Origin: an uncultured Planctomycetaceae bacterium
GTDB taxonomy: Bacteria; Planctomycetota; Planctomycetia; Planctomycetales; Planctomycetaceae
Reading direction: 5' to 3'
DNA: 63,964 nucleotides
Assembly: GCA_964431285.1 (NCBI GenBank)
Contig: CAYSJO010000896.1
Location: 1-63,964, forward strand
In this document: positions 4,402 to 48,734 of the stretch, one piece after another
Layout of the letters: each line of letters opens with the position of its first letter
How positions within the stretch are numbered: position 1 is the stretch's first letter
The notes under the pieces: generated by a model
Told to the model about the DNA's origin: nothing
The model's database searches: none
Seen by the model: only the letters and a program-made list of their open reading frames with translations
Program-made: the position numbers and the translations under genes

Positions 4402-4472
4402 TGCCCTGTAGTGTAACGGTAGCACGATTGACTCTGACTCAATTAGTCTAGGTTCAAATCCTAGCGGGGTAA
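4402..4472 (+). tRNA. tRNA-Gln (anticodon CUG)
   Basis: Cloverleaf read by eye. Acceptor stem TGCCCTG/CGGGGTA with the U1-A72 pair typical of bacterial tRNA-Gln. Anticodon stem ATTGA/TCAAT with loop CTCTGAC (CTG). T-arm CTAGG-TTCAAAT-CCTAG. No encoded CCA. Confidence 0.85.
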
Positions 4473-4482
4473 CTTACCAAGG

Positions 4483-4515
4483 CCCGTTGACAGCGATTGT
4501 CAGCGGGCTTTTTTC
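4483..4515 (+). terminator. rho-independent terminator after tRNA-Gln
   Basis: Stem CCCGTTGACA / TGTCAGCGGG (9 of 10 bp), 5-nt loop, followed by CTTTTTTCT. Confidence 0.6.
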
Positions 4516-4532
4516 TGTGGCCGAGCCGGCAC

Positions 4533-5792: not shown

Positions 5793-5813
5793 AGCCACAC
5801 AGTACCGGGTCGC

Positions 5814-7565: not shown

Positions 7566-7736
7566 CTGTGACGCAGATTCTGAATGTGGCCGAGTTTCGC
7601 TCAGGACCATTACCACTGAGTGTGCCGCGATGCCCCTCGTGACGGTTGCCGTTCGTTTCGGAAATCCGGATACTTGCCGGTTAATTTCTCCGAATACTCA
7701 TTTCGGGACCACTCTTCCCCTTTCCGGAGCACTATT

Positions 7737-8744: not shown

Positions 8745-8776
8745 GACGTTTTCAGAGTTGGTCTTCAGTGTAAACC

Positions 8777-8865
8777 CCTCTCCCTGACCCTGTCCCCAGC
8801 AGGGAGAGGAACGAGTCAGACGAGTTCCCTCTCCCCGCTGGGGACAGGGTCAGGGAGAGGTTTTT
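8777..8865. repeat. composite palindromic element with T-tract (terminator-like) downstream of DUF1559 gene
   Basis: Perfect 24-bp inverted repeat CCTCTCCCTGACCCTGTCCCCAGC (8777-8800) / GCTGGGGACAGGGTCAGGGAGAGG (8837-8860). Each arm can also fold back on an inner AGGGAGAGG / CCCTCTCC segment. Followed by TTTTT. Confidence 0.7.
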
Positions 8866-8992
8866 GAGTCGGATGGCCAACTCTGAAATGCTCTACTGCC
8901 TGGATCGTCGGCATCGCCATCCATCATGTTGCACTGCCGTGATCTGGCGAGTACGGGCAATCCTCGACCCAAAATGCCGGGCGTGATCTGGT

Positions 8993-10795: not shown

Positions 10796-10798
10796 ACA

Positions 10799-25422: not shown

Positions 25423-26820
25423 ATGTTAGGTCCGCGAAACCCCGCCGTCAGAATGCGCTGGAAGCCGACGCAGCCCACGTTGCAGCTTCCCGACCCGGAT
25501 TCGATGGTCTTCCCAGACGGTTTCCACTGGGGGTGCTCGACTGCATCTCACCAGGTCGAAGGAATGAACAACAACAGCGACTGGTGGCGCTACGAACGCA
25601 TCCAGGGGAACGCTGACAACTTCTTCGACTTCTCAGAGCACGTCCAGAATTACAAGAGTGACCATCGGCGCCAGTTCCAATCCGACATCGGGCTGATGGC
25701 CGAAGGGCTCGGGCTGAATTCGTATCGCTTCTCGCTTGAGTGGAGCTGCACTGAGCCCGAGGAAGGCCGGTTCGACGACGAAGTTATCGAACGATACGCA
25801 GCCATGTGTCGTCTGATGCGGACTCGTGGCATCGAGCCCATGGCCTGCCTGTTTCACTGGGTGAGCCCCGACTGGATCTGGGATCACGACAACGAACGCG
25901 GAACAGGCTGGTATCATCCCTCAATCGTTGATCGCTTCGCCCGGTTCGCTGAGAAGGTCATTCCAACCCTGTCTCCGCACGTCAATCAGTTCCTGACATT
26001 GAATGAGCCCAATGTCTATCTCTACGGCGGTTACTCGGAAGCCGTCCTGTGTCCCGGGCACACGATTGAAGACGAAGAACTGGTCGATGTCTATCGTCAC
26101 CTGTTACAGGCTCATGTTGCTGCCTGGAAGGTGATCAAGCAGGCGAATCCCGACGCCGAAGTGGGAATCGCAAATCATATTTCTCCGTTTGAGCCGGTCT
26201 CCAGGTGGAACCCCCTGGAAGCGTGGCTGGCTGCTCGCGTCGAGCAGGGCTTCTCCTGGTCGTTTCCTGATGCGGTGCGCGATGGACGATTCACTCTCGG
26301 CACGCGCAGATCCCGATTCATTTCGGAAGAAGTCGCCGACCTGAAAGGGACGGTCGATTTCATGGGGATCAATTACTACCAGCCGCTGTGGGCGAAAATC
26401 GCATTCAAGCCGATGGTGACTGTTGACGTCCAGCACCCGTATTCAGACGACATGCGCATCTGGCCGGACCAGATTTACACGGCCGGTTTCCTAGGCATCC
26501 TGGAGATCGCTCACGAACGGTATGAGTTACCGACTCATGTCCTGGAAAACGGTCGCTCTCATCGCGATGACAATCAGCGACGTGAATACATCAGGCAGCA
26601 CCTGGCGACACTGTCACACGGGATCAACAACAGGGGTGTTGACGTCCGTGGTTACTACTACTGGTCAGTGCTTGACAACCAGGAATGGGGCAACGGCTTC
26701 GTACCCAGGTTGGGTCTGTACGAAGTCGATTACGACACGGGCGAGCGGACTTTACGCGACAGCGGCCAGTACTATGGCCAGGTGATTCGGCGGAGCCATG
26801 CAAAAAAGGCGACGGCCTGA
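25423..26820 (+). CDS. glycoside hydrolase family 1 (beta-glucosidase-like)
   Basis: FPDGFHWGCSTASHQVEG, acid/base LTLNEPN, nucleophile VLENG. GGGAG lies 7 nt upstream of the ATG. Confidence 0.9.
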   Translation: MLGPRNPAVRMRWKPTQPTLQLPDPDSMVFPDGFHWGCSTASHQVEGMNNNSDWWRYERIQGNADNFFDFSEHVQNYKSDHRRQFQSDIGLMAEGLGLNSYRFSLEWSCTEPEEGRFDDEVIERYAAMCRLMRTRGIEPMACLFHWVSPDWIWDHDNERGTGWYHPSIVDRFARFAEKVIPTLSPHVNQFLTLNEPNVYLYGGYSEAVLCPGHTIEDEELVDVYRHLLQAHVAAWKVIKQANPDAEVGIANHISPFEPVSRWNPLEAWLAARVEQGFSWSFPDAVRDGRFTLGTRRSRFISEEVADLKGTVDFMGINYYQPLWAKIAFKPMVTVDVQHPYSDDMRIWPDQIYTAGFLGILEIAHERYELPTHVLENGRSHRDDNQRREYIRQHLATLSHGINNRGVDVRGYYYWSVLDNQEWGNGFVPRLGLYEVDYDTGERTLRDSGQYYGQVIRRSHAKKATA

Positions 26821-26900
26821 CGCGGTCCGATCCCTGCTCTCAATGTCTCCGGCGAGAACGAATGCGGCGGATGGATGCGCCGGACAGCATCCATGAATCG

Positions 26901-29021
26901 TCAGGGAATGCTTCCGGACGATCTCGTGCCAGTACCGGCGTCTCCATTGGAGTGACCGTTTTGTGACCAGAGTCGCAGCCCTCGTTCGCTGACCGACTTG
27001 AGCACGAAGTACCACATCATCCCGACAATCGCGCCTGCTACTCCGAAAGCGAACCAGGCATACCGAGTCAGACGCGACTGCAACTCGTAGACGGGCAGCA
27101 GAACTTCCGCTTTGCGTTCCTGCACGATCGCCGTCCAGCCGGTCTTGCCAACCGGGGCAAACGCCGCCAGCCATTCGCCGGCCGATGCCTCTGGATCGAT
27201 GGTGCTTAACGGATCCCGGTAGTCGGTCATAGTGATGCGGTCTGTGCCAGCTTCGGACAGGCGATGAGATACTTCGTCTGACAGTGTGAGTTGCCCGGCG
27301 CCTTTTTTGAGGCCGGCCAGACGCGAATGATCGAGCAGTCGCCAGTTGCGCGTGTCGGCGAGTGCGATCGTTCGCGCGACTCCACCGGCACCTGAGATGC
27401 TGCCTTCGTATTGCGACAGCAGTTCGCTGACATGAGCCGTGCGGGCCAGCACGCCGATCACGTCGCCTCCATTTAATCCCCATACGGGAACACTCAGGGC
27501 AACCATGTTGCGAAACGTGGAACGACTTTCAAACACGAGCGAAACATGTGGAGCGCGAATCGGTTGGATATCCTGCGGTGCCTCGCCTTTGCCGTAATCG
27601 ACTCCATGCGCGTGATAATAATCGCGGTAATTGAACTGCTGTCCGAGGATCTCGCCGTCGTGAGGACTTCGCCAGCGTTGAAAGCCATCGGCGTCAACGA
27701 AGAACCAGCTTGTGTCGAGCTCACGATCATGCTGCTTTCGGCGAGCGTCCACGCTGTCGCGGACTCCGTCCAGAATCGATCCGAATGTCATCCGATCAGA
27801 CCAGTCATCCCGCTGACTTGTCTCAATCGCCGCCACCAGATGCCGGTCGGACGCGACGCGTACCAGTTCGTCCATGCGGTCCTGCAGTTCGCGTTCGATA
27901 CTGCGGGCCAGAATACTGACGGACATCGCGTCACTTTCGAGCGCACGCGCGGTCAGGTTGGCGCCGGCCGTGTCCACAGCGCTGTTGGTGGCATTCGATG
28001 CAAAGAAAAACATGGCCAGCAGAATGAGACCCGGACCGATGCCTCCCATCGCCACCAGCGGGCGCACGCGACGCTGTCGGTCACGGGCGACCAGTTCATC
28101 GAGCACGGCCTGGGCGTTCGGATATCGGCGTTGCGGGTCACTGTGCAGACACCGATCGACAATCTCCGACAATCGCCGATCGAGTCCGGTGGCCTTCCAG
28201 TGTTCTTTGGGAGGAGGCGACTCGCCCACAATCTCGCGATAACGCTGCAGTCGCTCTTCAAGAGTCTGAGCCTGCCGAAGCGAATCCTCATTCTCTGGAG
28301 TGCGATGTGGTGGATGACCAACCAGCAAATGGAACAGCAGCGCACCCAGCGCATAGACATCCCACCGAGCATCGGGAATCGCATGCAAATCTGCCTGCTC
28401 GGGAGCCATATAGAACAAAGTACCCAGCGCCGGGTTCTGTTCGTGTGACAATCGCGACTGGCCGAAGTCGCACAGACGCGGTTCGAGGTCGGCGTCCAGC
28501 AGAATGTTGGCCGGCTTCAGGGCGCAGTGCAGCACACCGCGCCCGTGAGCATGGACGAGCGCCTGGCACACGCAACGAATGATCCGCACTGCTTCGTCGG
28601 GATGCGGCTGCCCATCGTCCAGCAGCGCTTCCAGCGAACCCCGTTCCAGATACTCCATCACGTACCACGGCGGGTCGGCCAGCCAGCCGACATCGATCAG
28701 TCGTACGACGTGCCGCGACGTGTACAGCAGAGCGAGTTTCTCGACCTCCCGACTGAGCAGTGACCAGTCCAGTCCACGATGGTGCGAGTAAAACTTGACG
28801 GCCACTTCCTTGCCGGTCTTCTCTTCCCGTGCCAGCCAGACAGCTCCGTAGGCGCCCTCACCCAGCTTCCGCTCGAGGTGTAAACCGGGTACGTGAAAAT
28901 CCTGCGGTTGGTGCGACCGCGAACTGAGTTCCTGCGACTGCGCAAGTTCCGCCTCGGACTGTCGCGGAGTCTGCTGAAGATGATCGCGCGTGGCGGGCAT
29001 GAATGGAGCCGGAGGGATCAC
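26901..29021 (-). CDS. Ser/Thr kinase-like sensor protein with Cache-like ectodomain (HRD replaced by HCA)
   Basis: Hanks subdomains GEGAYGAVW, VAVK, HCALKPANILL, CDFGQS, MAPEQ. TM, then an ectodomain with Cache-like FNYRDYYHAHG...MVALSVPVW...VIGVLART, then a second TM. Confidence 0.85.
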   Translation of the reverse strand: MIPPAPFMPATRDHLQQTPRQSEAELAQSQELSSRSHQPQDFHVPGLHLERKLGEGAYGAVWLAREEKTGKEVAVKFYSHHRGLDWSLLSREVEKLALLYTSRHVVRLIDVGWLADPPWYVMEYLERGSLEALLDDGQPHPDEAVRIIRCVCQALVHAHGRGVLHCALKPANILLDADLEPRLCDFGQSRLSHEQNPALGTLFYMAPEQADLHAIPDARWDVYALGALLFHLLVGHPPHRTPENEDSLRQAQTLEERLQRYREIVGESPPPKEHWKATGLDRRLSEIVDRCLHSDPQRRYPNAQAVLDELVARDRQRRVRPLVAMGGIGPGLILLAMFFFASNATNSAVDTAGANLTARALESDAMSVSILARSIERELQDRMDELVRVASDRHLVAAIETSQRDDWSDRMTFGSILDGVRDSVDARRKQHDRELDTSWFFVDADGFQRWRSPHDGEILGQQFNYRDYYHAHGVDYGKGEAPQDIQPIRAPHVSLVFESRSTFRNMVALSVPVWGLNGGDVIGVLARTAHVSELLSQYEGSISGAGGVARTIALADTRNWRLLDHSRLAGLKKGAGQLTLSDEVSHRLSEAGTDRITMTDYRDPLSTIDPEASAGEWLAAFAPVGKTGWTAIVQERKAEVLLPVYELQSRLTRYAWFAFGVAGAIVGMMWYFVLKSVSERGLRLWSQNGHSNGDAGTGTRSSGSIP

Positions 29022-29109
29022 AGTGGGGACAGTCGTGGAGAGTCGAACAACGTCCCGCGCTCAGCTGACGGTGTCAACTCAGCCGCGTCCCCTTGCACAC
29101 GGAGACCCA

Positions 29110-31743
29110 CTATTTTCCGTCATTCGCATCCTGAGGAAACAGTAACTCGCGAGCGCGATCCTGCGGGAGCCACTTCAGCGCGACGCCGACCACTGCCTCG
29201 CTGAACAGCGTTGCTTCCGAAGAGGATTCCTCCGGCTGACTGCCGATGACGCGATGCCCCTTGATCCACCGACTGCGCAGATCCTTCAGTGGCCCCTGGC
29301 TTTCGCTGAATGATCGAACTGGCAGCGGGACGAGTTTCGCAAGTCTCTCACCGATTTCGATTCTGACGTCGGCTGCATTCGGCGGATGAGCCATCAGCAC
29401 TCGCAGCAACAGCACTCGACGACTGCTGACGAGCGGCCAGTTGGCGCCGCCAGCGCCGCCGGCTCCTGCGTAGTCTGAGACGCCGAAGTCTCGGCCCGGT
29501 GAGTGCGGAGAATATGACATCAACTGCATCAGAAACGGTCGCGGTCCCTTCTCGGCCCTACTGTCCTTCTGGATCAGAGCAAGAATTCGCTCCACCGTGG
29601 CATCTGCCAGTTCGCCGGACACTTCTGACAGCGCGACAACGAGGTCGGTCACTTCGACCCCGTCGGGCGTTTCTTCGATCGCACTCATCAGGACGTCCAC
29701 GAGCCGTGTCCGCAATTCGTCGCCGATGGTCTGGTTCGACGTCAGCGACAACCGCGACATGATGACGGCCGCCTCGGCCCGGACGAACGGATCCTCGTCA
29801 TCCAGCAATCTTTCCATATACGAATCGAGACTGGACTGTTTCGCTCTGACGTCAGTTGTCACGAAGCGCCATGCCAGTCGTAGCAATGCCCGTTTCAGCC
29901 CGACACTGTGGCCAGGCCATTCTCGCTTTTTGAACTGTTCGAAAAACGCGACTGTGAATTCGGTCGACCGATTCAGACTTGTCGAACGTTCGGAGTCATA
30001 CGGCCACATGCTGTGCCCGGTTTCGGTGCGGGCATTCGCCAGGCGATCGACGATCCACCATCGTGCCTGATCCGTTCCTGACTGCAACGTGTGGGTGGCA
30101 GCCAGGGTGGCGACATTCGAATCATTCGTGTGGAGTGCTTCGTAAGCGGTCATCGCCATGTCTGAGGGTGCCGTGTTTGGCCGTTCGTCAGCGTAGAAGG
30201 TCTGCGTCGACAGCAAATACTGGAGCACGCGAGCGACTGCGGATGTCGCGGCCTGTCGGCCTGGACCGTTCGTGCGAAGCACCATGACACCAGTGAGATT
30301 GGACTCCAGTTGTTCAAGTGGAGTGTCGGCACCTGCCAGGTTCTCTGCAGCGGCACACCATTGGGAGAAGCGTTTGCCCTGATACGTCACCAGCTTCGGC
30401 AGCAGCGACATGGTAATCTGGTCCGACACATTGCCCGGCGCGACTCGTCCTCCAGATCCGGAGTCCAGGACACCTGACTCGCCCGGAACCGGTGCGAGTC
30501 GGATGACAGGCATGTCCGCATAAGGTACCGGCGCACCGGTAATTCTCTGCAGAGCCAGCACAGCGGCATTCAGCGACGAGCCAGTGAGTTCTGCCCGCAT
30601 GTCATCCCACCCCAACTCATTCCCTTGCGGGTGATCAACCGGACGGGTCGTCAGCTTGCCGCTGTCAATCAGAAACTCTGGCCGGACCGCTTCGAATCCG
30701 AAATCGCCCTCAAAGTCCGGAGCAACACCGAACCGCTCGGGCATCGATCTGACGATTGCCTCTATCACAGAAGCGGGCACGTCGGATCCCAGCCGTCCCA
30801 GTAACTCGTAGATCATTAATCGCCGTGTAATCAGAATCCGATCTTGGTGCCGGACGGTGGACGGCACTGCGACAATGGCTACCTGATCGAGACGATTCTG
30901 GTGCTTGCTGGACTGCAGCAGTACCGCGATTCGTTCTGCGGAATCGAGCGCCTGCCCGGCCAATTGAGCCAGACCGATCCAGGCGTCCGACTCGGCCGCC
31001 CACCATGCATCACGCAGGAACGGGCTGACGCTGTCGGGGTTTTCCAGAGCATTCAAAAACAGTCCAGCCAGCTCCGGACGCGGGTTGATCTCAGTCATCA
31101 GCCGAGTCGCCTTGAGGTGAAACGGCGAAGTTGGTGTGTCAACGAGTGCTTCCAGGCGCTCGACGAATTTTGGTTCGGTCTGTGGTCCTCGAACCTGATC
31201 AGAGAATCCCTGGAACGCGGAATACTGAGACGGCTCCTCGAGTTCATCCCACAGTTCAAGAACCGTGTCGATGTAGTCAGGAGACGTGAGCAATGCCTCG
31301 CGTAATGGATCTGGTGTTCCGACGATCGAACCAGGGGCGTGGTCAACACCATTGGGAGGTTCGGCCAGCCACTCAATAATCAACCGTCGCAGCAGCGGGC
31401 TGTCTTTCTGCAGGCCAGCGATGATTGGTTCGAGTATGTCGTCGGTACTTAATCGTCGGAGCTGACGAATGGCGGACGCCACAAGTATCTCTTCCGTGGA
31501 GAATCGCTCCATCGTCACGATCCCCACCTCTGTTTCAGTGCCGAGTTCGCGAATCGTCTCGCGTCGCGGCAGAGAATCGAGGGGGTAGGGTTCCAGTATC
31601 TGCAGTACTGCCTCGGCAGCTTCGCGATCGCGATAGCCTCGGCCCAGTATGCACAGCGCGTTGACCGCGCGTTCCAGTTCCTCGGGATTTCGTTCGGTCA
31701 GGACATCCTTCATCCATTGGTCAAAAGTCTTGCCGCTGAACAC
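29110..31743 (-). CDS. large HEAT/ARM-like alpha-helical repeat protein
   Basis: 877 aa, Leu/Ala/Arg-rich helical. N-terminal GKTFDQWMKDVLTERNPEELERAVNALCILG is a planctomycete HEAT-type motif and recurs internally (YQGKRFSQWCAAA). An alternative start at 31713 gives an ATGA overlap with the upstream stop. Confidence 0.65.
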   Translation of the reverse strand: MFSGKTFDQWMKDVLTERNPEELERAVNALCILGRGYRDREAAEAVLQILEPYPLDSLPRRETIRELGTETEVGIVTMERFSTEEILVASAIRQLRRLSTDDILEPIIAGLQKDSPLLRRLIIEWLAEPPNGVDHAPGSIVGTPDPLREALLTSPDYIDTVLELWDELEEPSQYSAFQGFSDQVRGPQTEPKFVERLEALVDTPTSPFHLKATRLMTEINPRPELAGLFLNALENPDSVSPFLRDAWWAAESDAWIGLAQLAGQALDSAERIAVLLQSSKHQNRLDQVAIVAVPSTVRHQDRILITRRLMIYELLGRLGSDVPASVIEAIVRSMPERFGVAPDFEGDFGFEAVRPEFLIDSGKLTTRPVDHPQGNELGWDDMRAELTGSSLNAAVLALQRITGAPVPYADMPVIRLAPVPGESGVLDSGSGGRVAPGNVSDQITMSLLPKLVTYQGKRFSQWCAAAENLAGADTPLEQLESNLTGVMVLRTNGPGRQAATSAVARVLQYLLSTQTFYADERPNTAPSDMAMTAYEALHTNDSNVATLAATHTLQSGTDQARWWIVDRLANARTETGHSMWPYDSERSTSLNRSTEFTVAFFEQFKKREWPGHSVGLKRALLRLAWRFVTTDVRAKQSSLDSYMERLLDDEDPFVRAEAAVIMSRLSLTSNQTIGDELRTRLVDVLMSAIEETPDGVEVTDLVVALSEVSGELADATVERILALIQKDSRAEKGPRPFLMQLMSYSPHSPGRDFGVSDYAGAGGAGGANWPLVSSRRVLLLRVLMAHPPNAADVRIEIGERLAKLVPLPVRSFSESQGPLKDLRSRWIKGHRVIGSQPEESSSEATLFSEAVVGVALKWLPQDRARELLFPQDANDGK

Positions 31744-33881
31744 AGGCTGTGGCTGATGTTGGCGTCCGATTCGCCCAGCGCAGTTCGCAGAGCCAGTTCT
31801 TGCAACGTGGCGGCACTGAAGAGCTCGTCCTCCGATGCGCGGCTGTTGTCTGTGGTGGGTCGCAACGCAACGCTCAGCCGGCCGATTTCCTTCGCCAGCA
31901 TGATTCGTGTCGCATCCTCCGCGGTGACCAGCAGACTGATTCGGTGTGGTGGAAACAGGTCATCCTCAACCGGTCTGTGCTGATCGACGGCAAAGACCTT
32001 AACGGCCTCAGCGACCGTGCGGATCGATTTCATCTGGCCCAGCTTCATCCGCTGACTGAACACGACCAATAGATCGACACGGTCACCGGGTGCAAGAATA
32101 TGACTCGAACCAACAGGTTGATCGACATCGATCGACACAACCCGCATGCCTTTTGGAATGCTTGCTCCGGCACTCTGGTTGAGGTCGACGCTCGACTGCA
32201 AAGTCAGGCTGAGTGTCCCGAGAGGAACGGCCGCTCGAAGCCGAGCCGCGATGATCGGCGTCACCTCGAATGTCATCTCACAATGCACGACGTCGTTGTC
32301 AGTCTTCTCGGCCTTGTCTATCCCGGTGATCTGAAGATTCTCAGCGATCGTACGGGCCGCGACCGCATCCTCGCCGTCCAGTAACTGAATTACATGCACG
32401 TGAGTCTTGTCAACGGGCAATGCCATCAGTGTTTCGCCGAACAGCTCGACTGACACGGTGACCGTTGTCAGTTCGGGCAGCGCCGCGATACCGGAAGGGT
32501 TGGAATTGTTGGCGGCCACTTCGCCAGGAATGCCCCGCTTGTGGTGTGTAATGCTGACGTACTCGTTGCCACCCCGTTTCAGCTGAATACTCCGGTCGTC
32601 GATTTTGAGCGACTCATACTCCTTCGGCAGCACGATTTCGTATTGCCCCGAACGGACGGTCAATTCGTTTTTGCCAATCGAGAGCGTTGCCTTGTGGACG
32701 ACCTCATTACCACGGCGAATCTCGATCGGAACGTTCTCGTCAGCACACTGGATGTGAATCGTGCCCGTATCCGTTTCAAGCCAGATGCCGATTCCGGCGG
32801 CCAGGATGGGGGGCACTATGAGCCCTCGCAGCCACTTCGCCGTGGAGCTACGTGACGCGGGCGCGTCACCAGACTTCGCCTGAGGGAAACCCTCCGGACG
32901 CACAAACGGCGGAATCGTCGCCGGGAAGTCCGGTTCATTCTCGGCTTCCGCCGCCGAAGCCAGTGTCTGGCCGCGGTCAGCCAGCTCAATCAATCTGTGC
33001 CCCGCACAGAATGGCCCCAGCACTGCAGCGACGTCGGCGGCCGTGGCGTGTCGATCATCCGGGGCTCGCGACAGTGTGCGGTTGACGATTTCGATCAGCT
33101 CAAGCGGCAGGTCCTGACTGCGGTCCCCGAGTGACGGCACATCGATTGTCGCCAGTGCTTTCATCTTTGCCAGCGGAGTGCGTCGCTCTCCCGACTCGTA
33201 CGGAGCGGTGCCGGTCAACAGTTTGAACAGCGTCGCACCCAGGCTGTAAACGTCTGCGCGACCGTCGACATCGTGGCTGTTATCTCCCTGCTCGGGAGCC
33301 ATGTAATCCAGCGTCCCCATAAGCTGTCCAACAGTCGTCAGCTCATCAACCGCTTCAATGGCCGCACCGAACAACGCCAGACCCAAATCCAGAATCCGAA
33401 CCTCACCGCGACGGTCGAGCATCAGATTGGAAGGTTTGACGTCGCGATGAATCAGATCCTGTTCGTGAGCATACTGCAGACCCAGAGCCGCCTGACGGAT
33501 GACCTCACACGCCGACGCCACGTCCAGCGGGCCGTTCAGTCGAACGAGCTTCGACAGGTCGATGCCCTCGACATAGTCCATCGCCAGAAAATGTGCTCCG
33601 TCGAGCACACCGGCATCGGTTGCCCGCACAATCGCCGGGTGATCGAGACGGCCAATGGCCTTCATCTCGCGTTCAAAGCGTGCGACCGCAGCAGCATCTC
33701 GAAGCCGCCGCGCTGGCAGCAGTTTCAAGGCGACCTCGCGTTCGAGTCGCGTGTGCAGGGCGCGGTACACCGTACCCATGCCACCGGCGCCCAGTTGCTC
33801 GACGAGTTCGTAATCGCGGATCCGCTCAACGATTCGAGCTGAAGGACTGGCACCGCTCGACTCGTCCATCGAACCAGGCAT
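31710..33881 (-). CDS. Ser/Thr protein kinase with single TM and CpaB/RcpC-like extracytoplasmic domain
   Basis: GAGGMGTVY, VALK, HRDVKPSNLML, DLGLA, YMAPEQ. TM LIVPPILAAGIGIWL. C-terminal IPKGMRVVSIDV...APGDRVDLLVVF...VKVFAVDQ...LLVTAEDATRIMLAKEIGRLSVALRP. Confidence 0.85.
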   Translation of the reverse strand: MPGSMDESSGASPSARIVERIRDYELVEQLGAGGMGTVYRALHTRLEREVALKLLPARRLRDAAAVARFEREMKAIGRLDHPAIVRATDAGVLDGAHFLAMDYVEGIDLSKLVRLNGPLDVASACEVIRQAALGLQYAHEQDLIHRDVKPSNLMLDRRGEVRILDLGLALFGAAIEAVDELTTVGQLMGTLDYMAPEQGDNSHDVDGRADVYSLGATLFKLLTGTAPYESGERRTPLAKMKALATIDVPSLGDRSQDLPLELIEIVNRTLSRAPDDRHATAADVAAVLGPFCAGHRLIELADRGQTLASAAEAENEPDFPATIPPFVRPEGFPQAKSGDAPASRSSTAKWLRGLIVPPILAAGIGIWLETDTGTIHIQCADENVPIEIRRGNEVVHKATLSIGKNELTVRSGQYEIVLPKEYESLKIDDRSIQLKRGGNEYVSITHHKRGIPGEVAANNSNPSGIAALPELTTVTVSVELFGETLMALPVDKTHVHVIQLLDGEDAVAARTIAENLQITGIDKAEKTDNDVVHCEMTFEVTPIIAARLRAAVPLGTLSLTLQSSVDLNQSAGASIPKGMRVVSIDVDQPVGSSHILAPGDRVDLLVVFSQRMKLGQMKSIRTVAEAVKVFAVDQHRPVEDDLFPPHRISLLVTAEDATRIMLAKEIGRLSVALRPTTDNSRASEDELFSAATLQELALRTALGESDANISHSLCSAARLLTNG

Positions 33882-33908
33882 CCGGTCGAGGCTGCGGGCC
33901 AGAGCGTC

Positions 33909-34145
33909 CTACAGCACGTTGCTCTCAGGAGGCGATGCGCTCTGTGATTCGGGGACGCCGTCGCGAACCGCCTCGCGCACACTGGCGATCAGTGAATCGG
34001 CCGTGTCGTCAAACGATGCGACCGTGTCTTCACACACAGGGCATTCGACAAGATGCGCATTGATCTGCTCAACACGGTCATCGTCGATACGACCAAGGCT
34101 GAAAGCTCGCAATTCATCGCGATCAATGCAGTCAGGAACTGGCAT
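33909..34145 (-). CDS. small zf-HC2-like (anti-sigma type) zinc-finger protein
   Basis: 78 aa. HLVECPVC (HxxxCxxC) preceded by CIDRDELRAFSLGRI. Its TAG stop is in frame with the kinase ATG 27 nt downstream. Confidence 0.55.
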   Translation of the reverse strand: MPVPDCIDRDELRAFSLGRIDDDRVEQINAHLVECPVCEDTVASFDDTADSLIASVREAVRDGVPESQSASPPESNVL

Positions 34146-34371
34146 CGCATTGCTCCATCAAAGGCGGACTCAGTAATCGTAAGCGAAATCAACTCTTATT
34201 CAGTAACAACGACGGAGCGCGACAGCTCTTTTCAATTTGGCGAGCATCGCGAATCCATGCCACACGGCCATGCATCTTGCCAGCCATTGCCAGGACGCCG
34301 GTAAACTCGGACCATGCGTTCAGAACCGACCTGACACGAGAACTCGCAACTTCGACCGGCTACGGTGATCG

Positions 34372-35814
34372 ATGCAAGCTACTGCCACCGCAGGTCGGCC
34401 ACATGTCGCAGTGATCGGGGGCGGACTGGCGGGACTCGCCACGGCTGCGGCACTTGTCGAACGCGATATCCGTGTCACGCTGCTGGAATCGCGGCCTCGG
34501 CTGGGCGGTCGCGCGAGCTCCATCGTTGATCGCGAAACCGGCCAGACGATCGACAACTGTCAGCACGTGACGATGGGCTGTTGCACCAACTTCCGCCACT
34601 TCAGCGAGAAGCTGGGATTTGCCGATCTGCTGCAGACGGAACGCCGTCTGTATTTCGTGGCTCCGCCCCGACCGGACGAGCGTCCGGCGATCGTTCCGTT
34701 CGCGGCTGGTCGGTTGCCAGTTCCTCTGCATCTGGCAATGGCATTCAACCGGCTCCCCTGGTTTCGCTTTGCCGAGAAACAGCAGATCGCGGTCGGTATG
34801 CGTGCATTGGCCCGCGCAGGTAATCAAACGGATGAACCCTTCTCGTATTGGCTGAACCGACACAAGCAATCGGAATGCGTGCAACGCGATTTCTGGCATC
34901 TGGTCCTTGTGAGTGCGCTCAGTGAGTCACTGGACCGCATCAGTACGCGTCATGCCCGCAAGGTCTTCGTCGACGGCTTCTTGGCATCCCGCACCGGATG
35001 GCAGGTTTCGATTCCCAGCGTTCCACTCGAGACGATCTATTCCACACGAGTCCGGCAATGGCTCGATCGTCAGGGTGTTGATGTGCGCATCCAGGCCGGA
35101 GTGAAACAACTGTCCGTTGATGATGGCCAGGTCGTCGGGGCGGAGATGCGAAGCGGCGAAACTGTTTCAGCAGATCATTTTGTCCTCGCTATCCCCCACT
35201 GGCTTGTGAAGCCCATCCTTCCGGACGTTCTGGCAAACGACTCTCAGCTATCCGGGATCGACCACCTCGAAACGGCTCCAATTGCGAGTGCGCATCTGTG
35301 GTTCGACCGGCCGCTAACTTCGCTCCCCCACGCCACTTTGCTGAATCGGCTAAGCCAGTGGATGTTCAATCGAGGCCTGGTTCAACATAACGAAAAAAGC
35401 TCTGAGTCAGCTGCGACATCGCACGTGCAGGTCGTCATCAGCGCCGCCCGTAATTTGTCAGGTCTGAGTGAGGGCGACATCATCGGTCAGGTCGAATCCG
35501 AGCTGCGCAGCGTCTGGCCCGAGTCCCTCGACGCGAAGCTCCGGCATGCCCGCTTAATCACCGAGCATCGAGCAGTGTTCTCACCACTCCCTGATGTAGA
35601 TGCTCTGCGTCCGCCTCAGCAGACTCCTGTTCCGAATCTGCAGCTTGCCGGCGACTGGACCAGTACCGGCTGGCCATCAACGATGGAAGGCGCCGTCCGC
35701 AGCGGCTACCTCGCCGCTGGCAACATCCTGCATCACCTGAATCGTCCCGCCGAACTCATCCGGCCCGATCTTCCGCAATCGCGACTCTTCCAATGGTGCT
35801 TTGGAGTGCGGTGA
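34372..35814 (+). CDS. FAD-dependent amine-oxidase/phytoene-desaturase family oxidoreductase (HpnE-like)
   Basis: VAVIGGGLAGLATAAALVERDIRVTLLESRPRLGGRA dinucleotide fold. C-terminal LAGDWTSTGWPSTMEGAVRSG. The HpnE-type assignment is by resemblance only; no hpnC/D neighbours. Confidence 0.65.
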   Translation: MQATATAGRPHVAVIGGGLAGLATAAALVERDIRVTLLESRPRLGGRASSIVDRETGQTIDNCQHVTMGCCTNFRHFSEKLGFADLLQTERRLYFVAPPRPDERPAIVPFAAGRLPVPLHLAMAFNRLPWFRFAEKQQIAVGMRALARAGNQTDEPFSYWLNRHKQSECVQRDFWHLVLVSALSESLDRISTRHARKVFVDGFLASRTGWQVSIPSVPLETIYSTRVRQWLDRQGVDVRIQAGVKQLSVDDGQVVGAEMRSGETVSADHFVLAIPHWLVKPILPDVLANDSQLSGIDHLETAPIASAHLWFDRPLTSLPHATLLNRLSQWMFNRGLVQHNEKSSESAATSHVQVVISAARNLSGLSEGDIIGQVESELRSVWPESLDAKLRHARLITEHRAVFSPLPDVDALRPPQQTPVPNLQLAGDWTSTGWPSTMEGAVRSGYLAAGNILHHLNRPAELIRPDLPQSRLFQWCFGVR

Positions 35815-38745: not shown

Positions 38746-40635
38746 TTATTTCTCAGTCATCGAGAATGCCCCGTCCCAGTCCGCTGGCACTGCATTGTCG
38801 GTTCTGGCCATCTGGCGGAACAGGAAGTCCTTCGGGCCGTCGTCACCCTGCAGCGAGTTCAGCAGTGTTGTCCCCTCTTCCCAATTACCCGCGACGATGG
38901 AGTCGACGGCTTTTTCAAAGGTCGCAAGGTGCTCGGCCGAGATTTCACTCTTGTCGGCAGGCGGAAGCATCTGACTCACAGTGATGGCGATTTCCATACC
39001 TTTGGGACGAACCCGGGCCAGCTTCCGAACACGCGCCTTCGTTTCGGGAATGTGCTTTCGCGCGAATTCTGCAGAGGCTTCGTCAATGATGATCGAGACA
39101 CCGAACTGTTTCGTCATTGTCTCGAGTCGAGCACCCTGATTGACGACGGGGCCGAACACGCCAATCTTTGCCTGCTGACTCGTACCAATCTGGCCCGACA
39201 CGGCCCGCCCGTGTGCAATGCCCAGTCCCACACTGAATCCGTCAATCAGTCCTTCGTGCCGCTCGGGATGATTGAATTCGTCCTGGATTGCCAGCCCGGC
39301 CAGGCAGGCAGGAACTGCTCCCTCTTCCAGTTCAACGGGCCAGCCCCAGAAACCAAGCGCGGCGTCGCCCTGGAAATCGGCGATCGCTCCATCGTGGGCC
39401 AGAATCCCGTTTGTCATGCACCCCAGCGCCGCCTTCACGCAGTTCAACAGGTACAGCAGGTTATCCTGATGCTGCTCGGACTTGCGAGAGAAGCCGCGGA
39501 CGTCGCAGAACAGGACAGTGATCTCCCGCTCGGAAGGAGTCAGGACATCAGTCGTGCCTTTGCCGGTCAGGTTCTCCATGACCGTCGGTGAGAAGAACGA
39601 GCTGAGCTGCGTCTGTGTATCCTGCAGATCGCGAACGGATCGAATGGATCCAATGAACTGCGCGAGAAGCTGAGTGAACCGGATGTCCGGTTTCAGCGAT
39701 TCCTCGTCGATCAGCATCCCTCCGTCTTTGCCGCCTTCGCCCGAGATGTACAGGCACCAGCCTTCGCACGCCGCGCCCGGGACCGGCACACAGAGCGCCC
39801 AGTCCAGACTGTCGCTCATCGTAAACTGACCGCCTTCATCGCGATCGCCCCAGACATGCACCGTACACTCGCTGGTCTTGAGCGTGTGATTGACCAGGCG
39901 GCGACTGGGCATGAACCGCCCCTGATACGATTCACGCGTTTCAACTCGCATGATCGCCGGTTTCGGTAGATCGTAATTGCTCGGGTCGTCAGTGCCCTTC
40001 AGCGCCTCGACGACAGTTTCGTCCCACTGGGCCGCCGCGACGGCGACGGATTCCGGAATCGCATCGAGCAGCAGCTTGACCAGAAACTGAGCCAGTTCCA
40101 CGTCCGTCTTCGCACTGGCGATCATCGTTGGCAGATCACACAGCAGCTCCATCTGCCGGGCAGTGTCCGCGAACTCAACGCCGCTCAGATCGTCAGCCTT
40201 GATCGAAAACTCATCGACCTCATTGCTGCCGCTGTCGTCTGGATTCGAATCCTCAAACACACCCGAATCATCGAATGTCGACTTGACCCGGCGTGATGAT
40301 CCCGAAGGATCAACGGGCTTAACTTCAAGCAGAAAGACACCAAAGAGTGTCTGCCCGATCTGAAATTGTCCGCCTGGGCCAATCACGAATTCGCGGGTTG
40401 GCCCTTGTTGTGTAAGAATCGGGTTTCGCGCACCTTGAGCACAGGCTACTCGTGCCTTCTCACCGCGAATCTCAATGGTGGCATGCTCGCGAGAAACTTC
40501 ACGGTCCCACGTGACTGCGCAGTCATTGTTCGGGGTTCGGCCTATGCGAATCTGTTTGCCTTCGACCAGACTCAATTGCATGGTGTGATCGGCCGAGATT
40601 GCCTTCACTCGCAACACCATCTGGCTGGTGCTCAT
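38746..40635 (-). CDS. FHA domain - GAF-like region - class III adenylate/guanylate cyclase
   Basis: FHA: IRIGRTPNNDCAVTWDREVSREHATIE. Cyclase: ITVLFCDVRGFSRKSE...FQGDAALGFWGWP...GIAHGRAVSGQIG...VFGPVVNQGARLE. Confidence 0.85.
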   Translation of the reverse strand: MSTSQMVLRVKAISADHTMQLSLVEGKQIRIGRTPNNDCAVTWDREVSREHATIEIRGEKARVACAQGARNPILTQQGPTREFVIGPGGQFQIGQTLFGVFLLEVKPVDPSGSSRRVKSTFDDSGVFEDSNPDDSGSNEVDEFSIKADDLSGVEFADTARQMELLCDLPTMIASAKTDVELAQFLVKLLLDAIPESVAVAAAQWDETVVEALKGTDDPSNYDLPKPAIMRVETRESYQGRFMPSRRLVNHTLKTSECTVHVWGDRDEGGQFTMSDSLDWALCVPVPGAACEGWCLYISGEGGKDGGMLIDEESLKPDIRFTQLLAQFIGSIRSVRDLQDTQTQLSSFFSPTVMENLTGKGTTDVLTPSEREITVLFCDVRGFSRKSEQHQDNLLYLLNCVKAALGCMTNGILAHDGAIADFQGDAALGFWGWPVELEEGAVPACLAGLAIQDEFNHPERHEGLIDGFSVGLGIAHGRAVSGQIGTSQQAKIGVFGPVVNQGARLETMTKQFGVSIIIDEASAEFARKHIPETKARVRKLARVRPKGMEIAITVSQMLPPADKSEISAEHLATFEKAVDSIVAGNWEEGTTLLNSLQGDDGPKDFLFRQMARTDNAVPADWDGAFSMTEK

Positions 40636-42387: not shown

Positions 42388-44547
42388 GTGAAGCGACTCT
42401 GCACGCCACTCTGTGTCCTGACAGTTCTTGCCATGATCGCTACCTCGGCTGACGCTGAGTCTGGTGCGACGGGTGCTGAACTCAGCCGGACTCTGACCGC
42501 GGAAAACAAAGAACTCGGCATTGAGGCCAAACCGATTGGCCTTGTCGATGACATGACTTACCTCCGCAGGACGTCGGTGGACCTGATTGGAAGGATTCCC
42601 ACGCATGAGGAAGTCGAGCAGTACCTGGCTTGGTCACCCACCGACCGACGCAGCCAATTGATCGATCGACTCATGGCCGATTCCCGGTTTGTCGACCGTT
42701 GGACGACGTTCTTTGCCGATATGCTCCGCCTGCGGTCCAATGCACCGGGTGGAGCGGCGGCCCTGGCATTCGTTCATAAGGCTATAGAAGAGGACATTCC
42801 TTACGACGAAATGGCACGTCGCTTCATCTCAGCCAACGGCAAGGCTGGAGCTGTTCCCGAGGTCGCGTACGTGCTGGGCGACAACGCCGATCCGATGGCC
42901 CTTGCTGGCGTCACCGCTCAGGTTTTCATGGGCATCCGGATCTCGTGTGCCCAGTGCCACGATCACCCGTTCGACAAGTGGACCCAGGAAGACTTCTACG
43001 GTTTCGCGGCATTCTTTGGGAAGACGCGGCGGTACGAGAATGACTTCACGAACACGATTTACACGTCGGAAGTCAAAATGTCATCCGTGCTCTGGCCACC
43101 CGAAGGTGAAGTTCCGGCCAGTGAGCGTAAGCCGGCGCTGCCGAAGTTCCTGGTCGATCTGATCGAGTCGAAGTCTAACTCTGAATACATCGCTCGCCTG
43201 GAACGCCAGCGCAAGGCTGAGCAGGATCTGATTGAAGCCGCCCTCGCTGAGAAGGCAAAGACCGCCGATCTCGATTCGCTGCTGGGCGATGCAGCCGAGC
43301 GGGCTCTGGAAGGTGCTTTGCGAGGAAAAAAAGACGCCGTCTCAGACGAAGCGAGAAGAGAACGCGAAGCGATCGATCTGACGGCCAGCTACTACAATTC
43401 CAGTGAACTTCGCACGGAACTGGCCGGTCTGATCGCAAATCCGAGGAATCGTTACTTCGCATCGTGCTTCGTGAATCGCGTCTGGGCCGATCTGGTCGGA
43501 CGCGGCATCGTCAACCCGATCGATGACTTCAGTGATGGGAACAAACCGTCACATCCGCAGACGCTGGACTTTCTGGCGAACGAGTTCATCGCCAGCGGGT
43601 TCCAGATCAAGCCGATCATCAAAATGATCGTCACCAGCGAACCATACATGCGAGGCCAGGCGGTTGGCTTTGATGCTCTGCAGACCGAAGAGCTGCAGTC
43701 CGCGTTCCTTGCTGCTCCGCCTCGGCGAATGCTGAGTGAAGTCCTCTACGATTCGATCGTCACGGCGGGACATCTCTTTGAGTACAAGTACCCGCAGGGC
43801 GCCAACATGAGGACCATCTCGAACCGCATTCGAGTCGCCATCCCAAAAGAAGGCGAAGAAGACGTGGTGGTACCTCAAGCGCTGGTGGCCAACGCTGGAG
43901 CGGCTATGAAGCCAAGTATGAAAGCTCAAATGGCTTCCCTGCCGGGTTACAGTCTTGAAGCTGGCATCGAACTCGATTTCGACGCCGTTCTGAAAAAGGC
44001 CGTGAACGAAGCCCGGGGGGAAACAGTCGAAGTTGAAGCCATGAAGGTGAAGTCGGCTGAAGAAATCGAAGCGGAGCGTATGCAAATGGAAGGTACGACC
44101 CGCCGCCGTTACACCTACATTTACCGCACTGTCGAGCGGACCTTTGACGACAATCCCATATTCAGCTCATCCTTCCGCATGGCATCTCCAGCCAACCCGG
44201 AGCACTTTGTTCGTATCTTCGGTCAGACCGATCGTGCCGAACTTGGTGTCCCGCGGGATCATGCTCCGAGCATGCGGCAGGGTTTGATGATGCTCAACGG
44301 AAAAATGACTCATGAAGCGTCGCGAGTTGGTTCGTTCGAACCTATGCACCAACTGCTTGTGGGTAAGAATGCTGATCTCAACGAAGCAGTGAAACTGGCC
44401 TATGTTGAGGTCCTGACACGTCAACCGGATGCTGACGAGATTGCAATGGCGGCGGCAATTGTTAGCGACGGCGATACATTGCTCGACGGCATGGCCGATC
44501 TTCGGTGGGTCCTCCTGAACTCAAACGAGTTCCGTTACCTGCCATAA
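42388..44547 (+). CDS. DUF1549/DUF1553 domain protein (PSD1-type)
   Basis: GTG start with GGGAG upstream. Signal peptide. DLIGRIPTHEEVEQYL (DUF1549), ISCAQCHDHPFDKW, FVNRVWADLVGRGIVNPIDDF (DUF1553). No N-terminal cytochrome-c domain seen. Confidence 0.9.
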   Translation: MKRLCTPLCVLTVLAMIATSADAESGATGAELSRTLTAENKELGIEAKPIGLVDDMTYLRRTSVDLIGRIPTHEEVEQYLAWSPTDRRSQLIDRLMADSRFVDRWTTFFADMLRLRSNAPGGAAALAFVHKAIEEDIPYDEMARRFISANGKAGAVPEVAYVLGDNADPMALAGVTAQVFMGIRISCAQCHDHPFDKWTQEDFYGFAAFFGKTRRYENDFTNTIYTSEVKMSSVLWPPEGEVPASERKPALPKFLVDLIESKSNSEYIARLERQRKAEQDLIEAALAEKAKTADLDSLLGDAAERALEGALRGKKDAVSDEARREREAIDLTASYYNSSELRTELAGLIANPRNRYFASCFVNRVWADLVGRGIVNPIDDFSDGNKPSHPQTLDFLANEFIASGFQIKPIIKMIVTSEPYMRGQAVGFDALQTEELQSAFLAAPPRRMLSEVLYDSIVTAGHLFEYKYPQGANMRTISNRIRVAIPKEGEEDVVVPQALVANAGAAMKPSMKAQMASLPGYSLEAGIELDFDAVLKKAVNEARGETVEVEAMKVKSAEEIEAERMQMEGTTRRRYTYIYRTVERTFDDNPIFSSSFRMASPANPEHFVRIFGQTDRAELGVPRDHAPSMRQGLMMLNGKMTHEASRVGSFEPMHQLLVGKNADLNEAVKLAYVEVLTRQPDADEIAMAAAIVSDGDTLLDGMADLRWVLLNSNEFRYLP

Positions 44548-44645
44548 ACTGTGTGTGATTTACGTCCCGCAGACGCGTCTCTGCCGGGCACTGCGAAACA
44601 AGGTTTACTCTTACCCCTCTGCTTCCGCTGAAAGGAACATGCACA

Positions 44646-45902
44646 ATGGTGGGTTGCCAGGACTACCGAGTCAGTCGCCGAGCTATGCTTGGAGCTTCCG
44701 CTGCAACGCTTATGGGTATGCAGGTCCGGGACCTGCTCGCGGCGAAGGGCCGTGATCACGAACCGACCGCCGACCACGTGATCTTCTTCTGGAATGGCGG
44801 CGGAATGACTCATTTGGATACGTGGGATCCAAAACCGGGCGCTCCGACTCAGGGCGAATTTGAGCCTATCGATACGTCAGCCCCAGGAATCCAGATCAGC
44901 GAGATTTTCCCGGAATTCGCCAAGGAAATGCACAATGTGTCGCTGGTCCGCTCAATCGCGGGCACACAGGGTGCCCATGGCCGTGCCAGTTATCTGGCGC
45001 AGACCAGTTACAACCAGACGGCCAATATCACGCACCCGGGTTTTGGCTCGGTGGTGGTGTCGGAAAAAGAAAAGCTGGGTGACCTGCCGGCGTATATCTC
45101 GATTAGCGGCCGCGCCCGGCGGGCGACCTACCTGGGGCAAAGCTGCGAGGCCTACTTTGTGGGCAGCCCCGGCGACAAGGACCCTTACCTTGCCTTCCCG
45201 GAAGGGATCACCAAGGTGCGTGGCAATAAGCGGTTAGACACGTTGGCGAAATTCAACGCCAAGTTCTCAAGCCGTACCACCAGCAAAGAGCTGGGCGCGA
45301 CCAAGACATCGGTCGAGGATGCCGTCAAGCTGATGCGCAGCCCGGCCCTCAAAGCGTTTGAACTGGACCATCTTCCTCTGACGGAGTTTGAGCGCTACGG
45401 CGACACTCCGTTTGGTCGAGGATGCCTGGTTGCGAAACAGCTCGTTGAGACGGGCGTCCGCTTCGTGCAGGTTAATCGCGGTGGATTCGACACCCACAGC
45501 AATAACTTTGAAGCCATGCGAAATCATGGTGACGTCATGGATCCGGCTCTCGGTTCCCTGATGCACGACCTGGACAAGACCGGTCTTCTGAAGCGCACGC
45601 TGGTCGTGATGCTCAGCGAATTTGGCCGGACGCCCCGCATTAATCGCAATGCTGGTCGTGACCACTATCCAGCAGTCTTCAGCTGCTTCATGGCTGGTGG
45701 CGGCATCAAGGGTGGCCAGGTCATCGGCTCGTCCGACAAGAACGGCGAACAGCCGCATGATCGCCCGGTTCTCATCCCCGAGTTGCACGCGACTCTGTGT
45801 CACGCTCTGGGCATCGATCCGAACAAAGAAGTCATGCCACCTCTGCAGCGTCCCATGAAGCTTGTCGATAAGGGCACGCCGATCATGGAAATGTTCGGCT
45901 AA
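44646..45902 (+). CDS. DUF1501 domain protein (sulfatase-fold, Tat signal)
   Basis: SRRAMLGASAATLMG, FWNGGGMTHLDTWDPKPGAP, LSEFGRTPRINRNAGRDHYP, MAGGGIKGGQVIGSSD. Confidence 0.9.
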   Translation: MVGCQDYRVSRRAMLGASAATLMGMQVRDLLAAKGRDHEPTADHVIFFWNGGGMTHLDTWDPKPGAPTQGEFEPIDTSAPGIQISEIFPEFAKEMHNVSLVRSIAGTQGAHGRASYLAQTSYNQTANITHPGFGSVVVSEKEKLGDLPAYISISGRARRATYLGQSCEAYFVGSPGDKDPYLAFPEGITKVRGNKRLDTLAKFNAKFSSRTTSKELGATKTSVEDAVKLMRSPALKAFELDHLPLTEFERYGDTPFGRGCLVAKQLVETGVRFVQVNRGGFDTHSNNFEAMRNHGDVMDPALGSLMHDLDKTGLLKRTLVVMLSEFGRTPRINRNAGRDHYPAVFSCFMAGGGIKGGQVIGSSDKNGEQPHDRPVLIPELHATLCHALGIDPNKEVMPPLQRPMKLVDKGTPIMEMFG

Positions 45903-48607: not shown

Positions 48608-48734
48608 AAGTTTCCCACGTCGTTACGTCATTCTGAGCACGATGTTCCACCACCTCTTTGCTGCCTTCAAATCCTCTGTTGGGCTCAACAGAAACAGACG
48701 AAGGCTGCGGAGTCTCAAACGAATGGTGATTGAT

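Follow-up and report, generated by a model that had tools for sequence, protein, structure and literature searches.

Do four tightly packed open reading frames (ORFs) on the minus strand of a planctomycete contig form a four-gene signalling operon? The question concerns the window analysed here, a stretch of 63,964 nt from an uncultured Planctomycetaceae bacterium (contig CAYSJO010000896.1, assembly GCA_964431285.1), of which positions 26,901 to 34,145 had been read, in a preliminary description, as a module of two membrane sensor kinases, a HEAT scaffold and a Zn-finger protein. The four ORFs were found with exactly the coordinates and spacing of that description (Table 1): from ORF1 to ORF4, they are separated by a 27-nt in-frame gap, a 34-nt overlap (ATGA if the Met11 start of ORF3 is used, which is the start of the source's own 867-aa gene call) and 88 nt. 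The domains guessed for them, namely a Hanks kinase with RcpC, a HEAT-like solenoid, a double-Cache domain and an HxxxCxxC finger, were all borne out. The count of four genes was not. The comparisons reported below show that the locus consists of two tandem genes for receptor Ser/Thr kinases, gene A and gene B, and that ORFs 1 to 3 are pieces of one ancestral gene, which is a single ORF in a sister species.

We consider it probable that the locus holds two tandem receptor kinases, gene A being split by lesions and gene B being partnered with an FHA-cyclase, and that this module was recently inactivated. The annotation should accordingly name one receptor kinase gene that is disrupted and one Cache kinase that is catalytically dead. 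The source, an NCBI contig of metagenome-assembled genome (MAG) or whole-genome shotgun (WGS) type, has gene calls of 78, 867 and 699 aa at the locus; no source record holds a 723-aa product with the start given here for ORF2.

Table 1 Features of the locus and its neighbourhood (positions in the window). Curated Pfam cut-offs applied to the window proteins were 31.7 (Pkinase), 28.8 (RcpC), 22.2 (zf-HC2), 45 (dCache_1), 27.7 (HEAT_2) and 26.4 bits (Cnd1). TM, transmembrane; L001 and L002, related assemblies (see text).
Feature	Position	Strand	Description
ORF1	33909-34145	minus	78 aa
ORF2	31710-33881	minus	723 aa
ORF3	29110-31743	minus	877 aa, GTG start
ORF4	26901-29021	minus	706 aa, GTG start
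Gene A	29110-34145	minus	disrupted orthologue of a ~1,675-aa receptor Ser/Thr kinase
ZAS-like (zf-HC2-like) N-terminal domain	33912-34145	minus	from family alignments and profile
Premature stop TAG	33909-33911	minus	CAG (Gln) in L002 (DNA alignment)
Former coding linker, finger to kinase	33882-33908	minus	25/27 nt identical to L002, in frame there
Hanks kinase domain of gene A	33045-33812	minus	Pfam Pkinase 2.6e-44, 152 bits
TM helix of gene A	32778-32834	minus	aa 350-368 of the 723-aa ORF
RcpC (CpaB C-terminal, beta-clip)	31860-32165	minus	Pfam 1.2e-23, 83.6 bits
Frameshift	~31750-31765	minus	net 1-nt loss (4-nt indel relative to L001/L002), in the RcpC-solenoid linker
HEAT-like alpha-solenoid	29110-31743	minus	C-terminal extracytoplasmic domain in intact relatives
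Gene B	26901-29021	minus	Hanks-type kinase, dCache between two TM helices
Catalytic-base codon of gene B	28521-28523	minus	GCC (Ala), GAC in L002; HCALKPAN replaces HCDLKPAN
Double-Cache (dCache_1-like) domain	27072-27987	minus	extracytoplasmic, ligand-binding type
FHA and class III nucleotidyl cyclase	38746-40635	minus	629 aa; Pfam FHA/Yop-YscD_cpl and Guanylate_cyc

A single ancestral gene behind ORFs 1 to 3

The main comparison was made with L002, a Planctomycetota MAG obtained in a scan of species-representative genomes, which is ~80% identical to the window at the nucleotide level, shares its upstream synteny, and is called the sister species here. Its positions L002:7604-12631 form a single ORF of 1,675 aa, colinear with the 78-, 723- and 877-aa ORFs at ~80% nucleotide identity, which spans ORF1, the 27-nt gap, the kinase/RcpC ORF and the solenoid. 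The order of domains along gene A is a ZAS-like finger, a Hanks kinase, one TM helix, a beta domain with RcpC, and a HEAT-like solenoid. The split into three ORFs is therefore explained by a nonsense codon and a frameshift in a single ancestral gene. The TAG codon falls in a linker conserved in the family ('vLqdAL'), and the frameshift was placed by comparison of the junction at the DNA level and in all three frames.

The same conclusion was reached from more distant relatives. A word-indexed homology search proved nearly blind to this family, with one match for the solenoid and two for the 78-aa ORF; the only ORF3 homologue obtained in this way (P0001) carries the RcpC region and the solenoid in one ORF. 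Solenoid relatives were therefore gathered by an exhaustive HMMER search, which gave 41 proteins, nearly all 1,000 to 2,800 aa long and referred to below as giant kinases. Residue 1 of ORF3 aligns to internal positions of these proteins (320 to 1,465), a Pkinase domain starts at about residue 100-115 (182 in P0023) in 10 of the 11 that were scanned, and ORF1 together with the gap behind it aligns to their ~100 N-terminal residues; the finger-linker-kinase region as a whole is conserved across at least 16 proteins. At the second junction, the solenoid frame is open for 72 codons upstream of the GTG of ORF3 without any start codon. This GTG 'start' is the Val of a conserved PxPVFSGK motif, and the Pro conserved before 'VFSGKTF' is encoded 5' of it. 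Together, these alignments show that gene A descends from one predicted protein of ~1,675 aa, cut by a nonsense codon and a 1-nt frameshift.

Two ways of bypassing the lesions were considered and rejected: programmed frameshifting, since the shift would have to take place ahead of the conserved PQPVFSGK and no slippery heptamer is present there, and readthrough or reassignment of TAG, since this codon serves as a normal stop for 13 of 30 window ORFs.

The Zn finger, first described as a separate protein, lies in the same ORF as the kinase in L002 and in the same polypeptide across the family. Its residues C6, H31, C35 and C38, that is, an H-x3-C-x2-C motif with an upstream Cys ligand, are invariant in alignments of 16 to 18 members. 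A profile built from 16 members matches the anti-sigma factors of the PDB (DdvA, E = 0.002; ChrR, 0.0035; RslA, 0.015), and 15 of the 16 match Pfam zf-HC2 at E <= 1, the best at 6e-6. Taken alone, the window finger scores E = 0.06 against zf-HC2 (13.9-14.2 bits, below the cut-off); the assignment to the ZAS class is supported at the level of the family, from profiles and alignments.

Beyond the finger, the kinase domain of gene A has its motifs complete (LGAGGMGTV, VALK, HRDVKPSN, DLG and APE). One strong TM helix follows ~80 aa past the kinase in L002 and in most of the nine family members scanned for hydropathy, the exceptions being two with a second, weak segment and one with none. Because there is a single TM helix after the kinase, RcpC and the solenoid are predicted to be extracytoplasmic. 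RcpC was also detected in L002, P0019 and P0023; the Pfam scan of ORF2 gave no match to SAF at E <= 0.1. For the solenoid, the Pfam matches stay below the cut-offs (HEAT_2, 4.5e-5, 24.1 bits; Cnd1, 18.2 bits), and the AlphaFold2 model of the 877-aa ORF is almost wholly helical, with a mean predicted local distance difference test score (pLDDT) of 79.1. In Foldseek, this model matched CAND1, karyopherin-beta2, condensin Cnd3, SF3B1 and PP2A-A at probability 1.0, and almost all of its top 50 matches were HEAT/ARM-type helical repeats, with the low TM-scores expected for flexible solenoids. No TM helix or signal peptide of its own was found in the 877-aa ORF. What had been taken for an independent HEAT scaffold is thus the extracytoplasmic tail of the first kinase, in one polypeptide with a single TM helix.

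The Cache kinase and an FHA-cyclase

Gene B likely starts at Met8 (position 29000), which corresponds to the 699-aa gene call of the source. It is 93% identical to its orthologues in L002 and in a further assembly, L001, scores well above the cut-off with Pfam Pkinase (1.2e-42, 146.6 bits), and has TM helices at aa 319-342 and 655-675, as judged from hydropathy. Its catalytic-base codon is changed (Table 1): the HCD motif is kept in all seven homologues for which the region was available, and HCA was met only in the window. Three window-derived changes were counted at sites conserved in the outgroups, and the replacement of this Asp by Ala is the sole non-conservative one. The product of gene B is therefore predicted to be a kinase in structure, catalytically dead. 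The wording 'kinase-like', chosen for ORF4 in the preliminary description, was apt in that its HRD-equivalent is HCA.

The sensor region of gene B was identified mainly from its fold. Against Pfam dCache_1, the window protein scores E = 0.031 (14.2 bits, below the cut-off), and PF02743 is precomputed on many gene B homologues. The AlphaFold2 model of the ectodomain (pLDDT 86.4) shows a double PAS-like alpha/beta fold on a long N-terminal helix, between the two TM helices, and Foldseek matched it to DctB, PscC, Tlp3 and PctA/B/C at probability 1.0, with target-normalised TM-scores of 0.6-0.7.

Does the order of the genes persist elsewhere? Scanning metagenomes with the Cache ectodomain yielded 37 loci, which were pooled with three further contexts (L004 to L006). 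The upstream side was informative at 22 loci, where 3 kb or more of sequence was available, and the downstream side at 35, where there was 600 nt or more. A giant kinase is encoded upstream of the Cache kinase at one of the 22 loci, L011, which belongs to the species of L002. Conversely, no second kinase was found beside the giant kinase at six distant giant-kinase loci. Conservation of gene order, which had been put forward as a check of the four-gene module, is thus confined to one sister species, the order being absent from 21 of 22 Cache-kinase loci and from the six distant giant-kinase loci. Genes A and B are co-directional, 88-109 nt apart in the window and joined by an ATGA overlap in L001 and L002; the flank downstream of gene B differs between the window and the sister species. 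A scan of positions 26500-34500 for promoters and terminators returned the counts expected from shuffled sequence and is uninformative on co-transcription. The sole terminator-like site at an operon end is a short GC-rich hairpin with a T-poor tail (26865-26882, minus strand), ~20 nt past the stop of gene B; the total of such sites equals the shuffle expectation.

Another neighbour does recur. An orthologue of an FHA-cyclase of the window lies directly downstream of the Cache kinase at 22 of the 35 loci, at spacings of -106 to +115 nt and with E-values of 1e-100 to 1e-119. The window protein is 33-34% identical, over its full length, to the neighbours of the Cache kinase in L004 and L005. It has the FHA residues GR (aa 32-33) and SREH (aa 48-51, SxxH), and the cyclase catalytic motifs FCDxxGFS, GDA and NxxxR. 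It is encoded on the same strand as the two kinases, 4.6 kb upstream of gene A and ~9.7 kb from gene B; RibD, sulfatase and amine oxidase genes stand between it and gene A, so that four genes, gene A included, separate it from gene B, an arrangement that is syntenic in L002. The earlier statement that the window has no sigma factor, PP2C phosphatase or response regulator held for its larger ORFs; the accompanying view that the output could not be named did not, since this FHA-cyclase is a candidate for the output of gene B. The recurrence of a dCache-kinase/FHA-cyclase operon predicts a direct link between Ser/Thr phosphorylation and cyclic nucleotides.

In intact relatives, a small periplasmic ligand would bind the dCache domain and gene B would autophosphorylate; the FHA domain of the cyclase would then dock on a phosphothreonine of gene B, and the synthesis of cyclic AMP or cyclic GMP would change. 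Gene A would be a separate envelope sensor, whose periplasmic solenoid and RcpC probably bind a macromolecular partner and whose ZAS-like finger probably holds an extracytoplasmic function (ECF) sigma factor encoded elsewhere in the genome.

The lesions and their alternative explanations

The lesions look real. L007, an ENA scaffold 99.6-99.9% identical to the window and ending at window position 28985, is the same as the window at the TAG codon and at the junction frameshift. Their age was estimated from the ratio of nonsynonymous to synonymous substitutions (dN/dS) relative to L002. The ratio was 0.07 for the kinase of gene A, 0.20-0.22 for the finger, ectodomain and solenoid, and 0.06 for the kinase of gene B, the range over all segments being 0.05-0.22, compared to 0.09 for flanking control genes; dS was ~0.6. 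Changes polarised by outgroups were distributed between the window and L002 as 3:4 and 21:14, which is not significant. Given the low dN/dS and the lack of any excess of window-derived changes, the lesions are recent relative to a dS of ~0.6. A long-standing pseudogene was rejected on these same figures, all segments being constrained and the changes balanced between lineages. As three lesions are found in two adjacent, otherwise constrained genes, the module was most likely inactivated recently, or at best leaves truncated remnants, predicted to be a kinase-RcpC protein devoid of finger and solenoid, and a pseudokinase.

L007 has in addition a 1-nt deletion at window position 30472 (L007:6516), within the solenoid, as well as two N-gaps. 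The deletion splits the solenoid region into gene calls of 441 and 433 aa, and points to ongoing decay in the population or, alternatively, to an error of assembly.

Several observations weigh against recent inactivation of a two-kinase module. All comparator sequences are metagenome assemblies, L007 may come from the same or a related sample, and the Asp-to-Ala change was seen on one contig only, because L007 ends at 28985. Homologous genes are split in other assemblies as well (L001, L005, L006 and L009), some of them clearly at scaffold gaps, so that some weight has to be left to assembly error. A start codon is available to every fragment (ORF2 has an ATG that encodes a conserved Met; ORF3 has the GTG or Met11), and separate products could therefore be made. 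In the window lineage, the cyclase no longer adjoins the Cache kinase. Finally, there is no ECF sigma gene in the window, and one was found in two of seven distinct giant-kinase contexts, which are the window/L002 lineage and the six distant ones.

How far do these observations favour other explanations? If the interruptions were artefacts of assembly or sequencing, gene A would be intact in vivo, and the TAG codon, the frameshift and perhaps the Asp-to-Ala change would be consensus errors. The window is indeed a MAG/WGS contig, and the extra deletion and N-gaps of L007, the gap of L001 and the split homologues of L005, L006 and L009 show errors and splits to be frequent in these data. However, L007 is 11 single-nucleotide polymorphisms away from the window, hence a distinct assembly, and shares both lesions of gene A; the 78-aa product has entries in NCBI, ENA and Logan, and the gene call of a third, short contig likewise starts at Met11 of ORF3. 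The frameshift site is not in a homopolymer, and nonsense and missense substitutions are atypical of assembly errors. We regard this explanation as improbable. To a functional fission, in which a free Zn finger, a kinase-RcpC protein, a cytoplasmic HEAT scaffold and a Cache pseudokinase would act as one module, we give slightly less credit still. It would account for the start codon in each ORF, the tight spacing, the purifying selection on all segments relative to L002 and the apparent fixation of the lesions in two assemblies, and pseudokinases are known to be able to serve as scaffolds. Yet dN/dS mirrors the long history shared with L002 and not the short time since the lesions, the solenoid lacks a signal peptide of its own and is extracytoplasmic in every intact relative, the GTG 'start' is merely a Val of a conserved motif, and the four-gene layout was found in no relative. 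The module of two sensors, a scaffold and a Zn finger first proposed for this locus is accordingly unsupported: the gene is fused, there is a single TM helix in it, the order is not conserved, and a cyclase partner is present.

A dedicated pair is the remaining alternative, and the least improbable of the three, although we still hold it unlikely. Here the adjacency of A and B would be functional, the kinases acting as a heterodimer or a cascade. The two genes are co-directional and closely spaced, with the ATGA overlap noted in L001 and L002, and their order has been held in two species separated by a dS of ~0.6 while the flank downstream of gene B changed; tandem Hanks kinases are known, for instance pknA-pknB. 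Against this stands the absence of such adjacency from 21 of the 22 informative Cache-kinase loci and from the six distant giant-kinase loci, and also the fact that the neighbour which recurs is not the same in the two families, being an FHA-cyclase beside the Cache kinases and an ECF sigma beside the giant kinases. Two receptor kinases placed in tandem and recently inactivated stay the preferred reading.

Split kinase calls, in two or three pieces, were encountered at L001:694-703, L005:5946-8160, L006:8728-10942 and L009:6935-13115. In L001, ~400 nt are missing, so that the last part of the kinase domain is lost along with the TM helix, and runs of N are present. Split kinase genes in metagenome data should be checked before they are interpreted.

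The giant-kinase family, known systems and the rest of the window

The giant Hanks kinases, which fall into ~40 clusters at 50% identity, make up a planctomycete family that is so far uncharacterised. Its members join an anti-sigma-type finger to a HEAT solenoid in the periplasm, and some are encoded immediately behind an ECF sigma gene. Two distant members, P0021 and P0022, have an ECF sigma gene (Sigma70_r2) 110-115 nt upstream, at L010:7270-7890 and L048:451-1080, and both sigmas keep an acidic DxxDxxQD motif. In the window itself, a phmmer search with the L010 sigma against the six-frame translation gave no sigma, and no Sigma70_r2 was found by Pfam among the ~30 large ORFs scanned.

Planctomycetal ECF groups linked to kinases have no separate anti-sigma, and the groups other than ECF43 keep a DAED-like motif (PMC7826278, PMC8999054), which agrees with the role proposed above for the finger of gene A; so does the N-terminal region of PknS described below. 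It is conceivable, if doubtful, that the giant kinases act as anti-sigma factors anchored in the membrane and carrying a Hanks kinase of their own, alongside a parallel, ligand-gated route in which Cache kinase and FHA-cyclase would lead from phosphothreonine to cyclic nucleotide. The ZAS finger would sequester the ECF sigma, RcpC and the HEAT solenoid would read a periplasmic signal, and the sigma would be released through autophosphorylation or through its own phosphorylation. If true, this would explain the control of those kinase-linked ECF groups that lack an anti-sigma yet keep the acidic sigma2.2 motif. That a fused ZAS-like domain performs the sequestration is what we infer here; it is absent from the papers on ECF/kinase modules that were consulted.

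Two further neighbours of giant kinases were noted. In a single case (L051:2097-3311), a Peptidase_M50 gene, of the site-2 protease family, lies directly upstream of giant kinase P0033, the ectodomain of which has Poly_export in place of RcpC; this neighbour is suggestive of intramembrane proteolysis in the style of anti-sigma factors. Shortly before the sigma/giant-kinase pair of L010 comes an RVT_1 reverse-transcriptase ORF of 455 aa (L010:5838-7205), possibly a group II intron or a retron.

All parts of the locus belong to known domain families, and receptor Hanks kinases are themselves a known type of system. Like the receptors PknB and PknD of Mycobacterium tuberculosis and PknS of X. citri, gene A has its Pkinase domain in the cytoplasm, linked through a single TM helix to a sensor on the outside. 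PknS has a helical N-terminal region of ~81 aa ahead of its kinase (PMC13147305), and a region likewise precedes the kinase of gene A. Gene A departs from these receptors in its sensor, which is RcpC with a HEAT-like solenoid of ~870 aa instead of PASTA, a beta-propeller or the like, in its CHCC ZAS-like N-terminus, and in the very large size of its family (1,000-2,800 aa), the window copy being broken. The finger shares with the ZAS anti-sigmas ChrR, RslA, RsrA and DdvA the N-terminal helix pair, the H-x3-C-x2-C motif and the upstream Cys; it differs from them in that a Hanks kinase and a giant periplasmic domain follow in the same protein, and no sigma gene lies in the window. The pairing of a sigma with a membrane Hanks kinase at L010 and L048 resembles that of ECF43 (EcfP-PknT and EcfK-PknS) and of planctomycetal ECF59, 61, 62 and 217. 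In contrast to these modules, the window and the sister species have no adjacent sigma, and unlike the ECF43-type sigmas, those of L010 and L048 have retained the acidic DxxDxxQD and not lost it. The RcpC beta-clip of gene A, above the Pfam cut-off, is that of the CpaB/RcpC proteins of Tad/Flp pili, but it stands within a kinase ectodomain and no SAF was detected; no Tad/Flp genes were found among the window ORFs.

For gene B, the closest parallels of the sensor are the dCache_1 proteins DctB, PctA, Tlp3 and PscC, with the same double-Cache fold between two TM helices; the difference is that its Hanks kinase is N-terminal to the Cache domain, whereas in those sensors a histidine kinase or chemotaxis module lies downstream. 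Kinase-FHA pairs are known from PpkA-Fha1 of the type VI secretion system and from PknB-GarA, and Synechocystis Cya1 is a class III cyclase that contains an FHA domain. As in PpkA-Fha1 and PknB-GarA, the relatives of gene B have an FHA domain with the phosphothreonine-binding GR and SxxH beside a Hanks kinase, the FHA domain being here fused to a class III cyclase. The window differs from those pairs in that gene A and three other genes intervene, and that the kinase is without its catalytic Asp. To our knowledge, a conserved Cache-kinase/FHA-cyclase operon has not been described; a very limited literature search found no description of it, nor of the finger-kinase-RcpC-solenoid architecture.

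Elsewhere in the window, two overlapping TPR-rich ORFs of 820 and 2,729 aa (46145-48607 and 48519-56708, plus strand, 89-nt overlap) could together represent a single, very large gene, or else a further case of a split one. On the same strand, at 42388-45902, a PSCyt2/PSD1 (DUF1549/DUF1553) gene is followed by a DUF1501 gene, a typical planctomycete pair, and a second DUF1501 gene was found at 56874-58313. The region 4497-12034 (plus) has a repeated TPR and FG-GAP/ASPIC-UnbV layout (TPR, FG-GAP, a DUF1559 prepilin-like protein, FG-GAP, TPR). An ORF of 1,383 aa at 58330-62481 (minus) combines FG-GAP, Calx-beta, RTX nonapeptide and a matrixin-like metalloprotease motif. The sole Rfam match in the scan of the window is a tRNA gene at 4402-4472 (plus).

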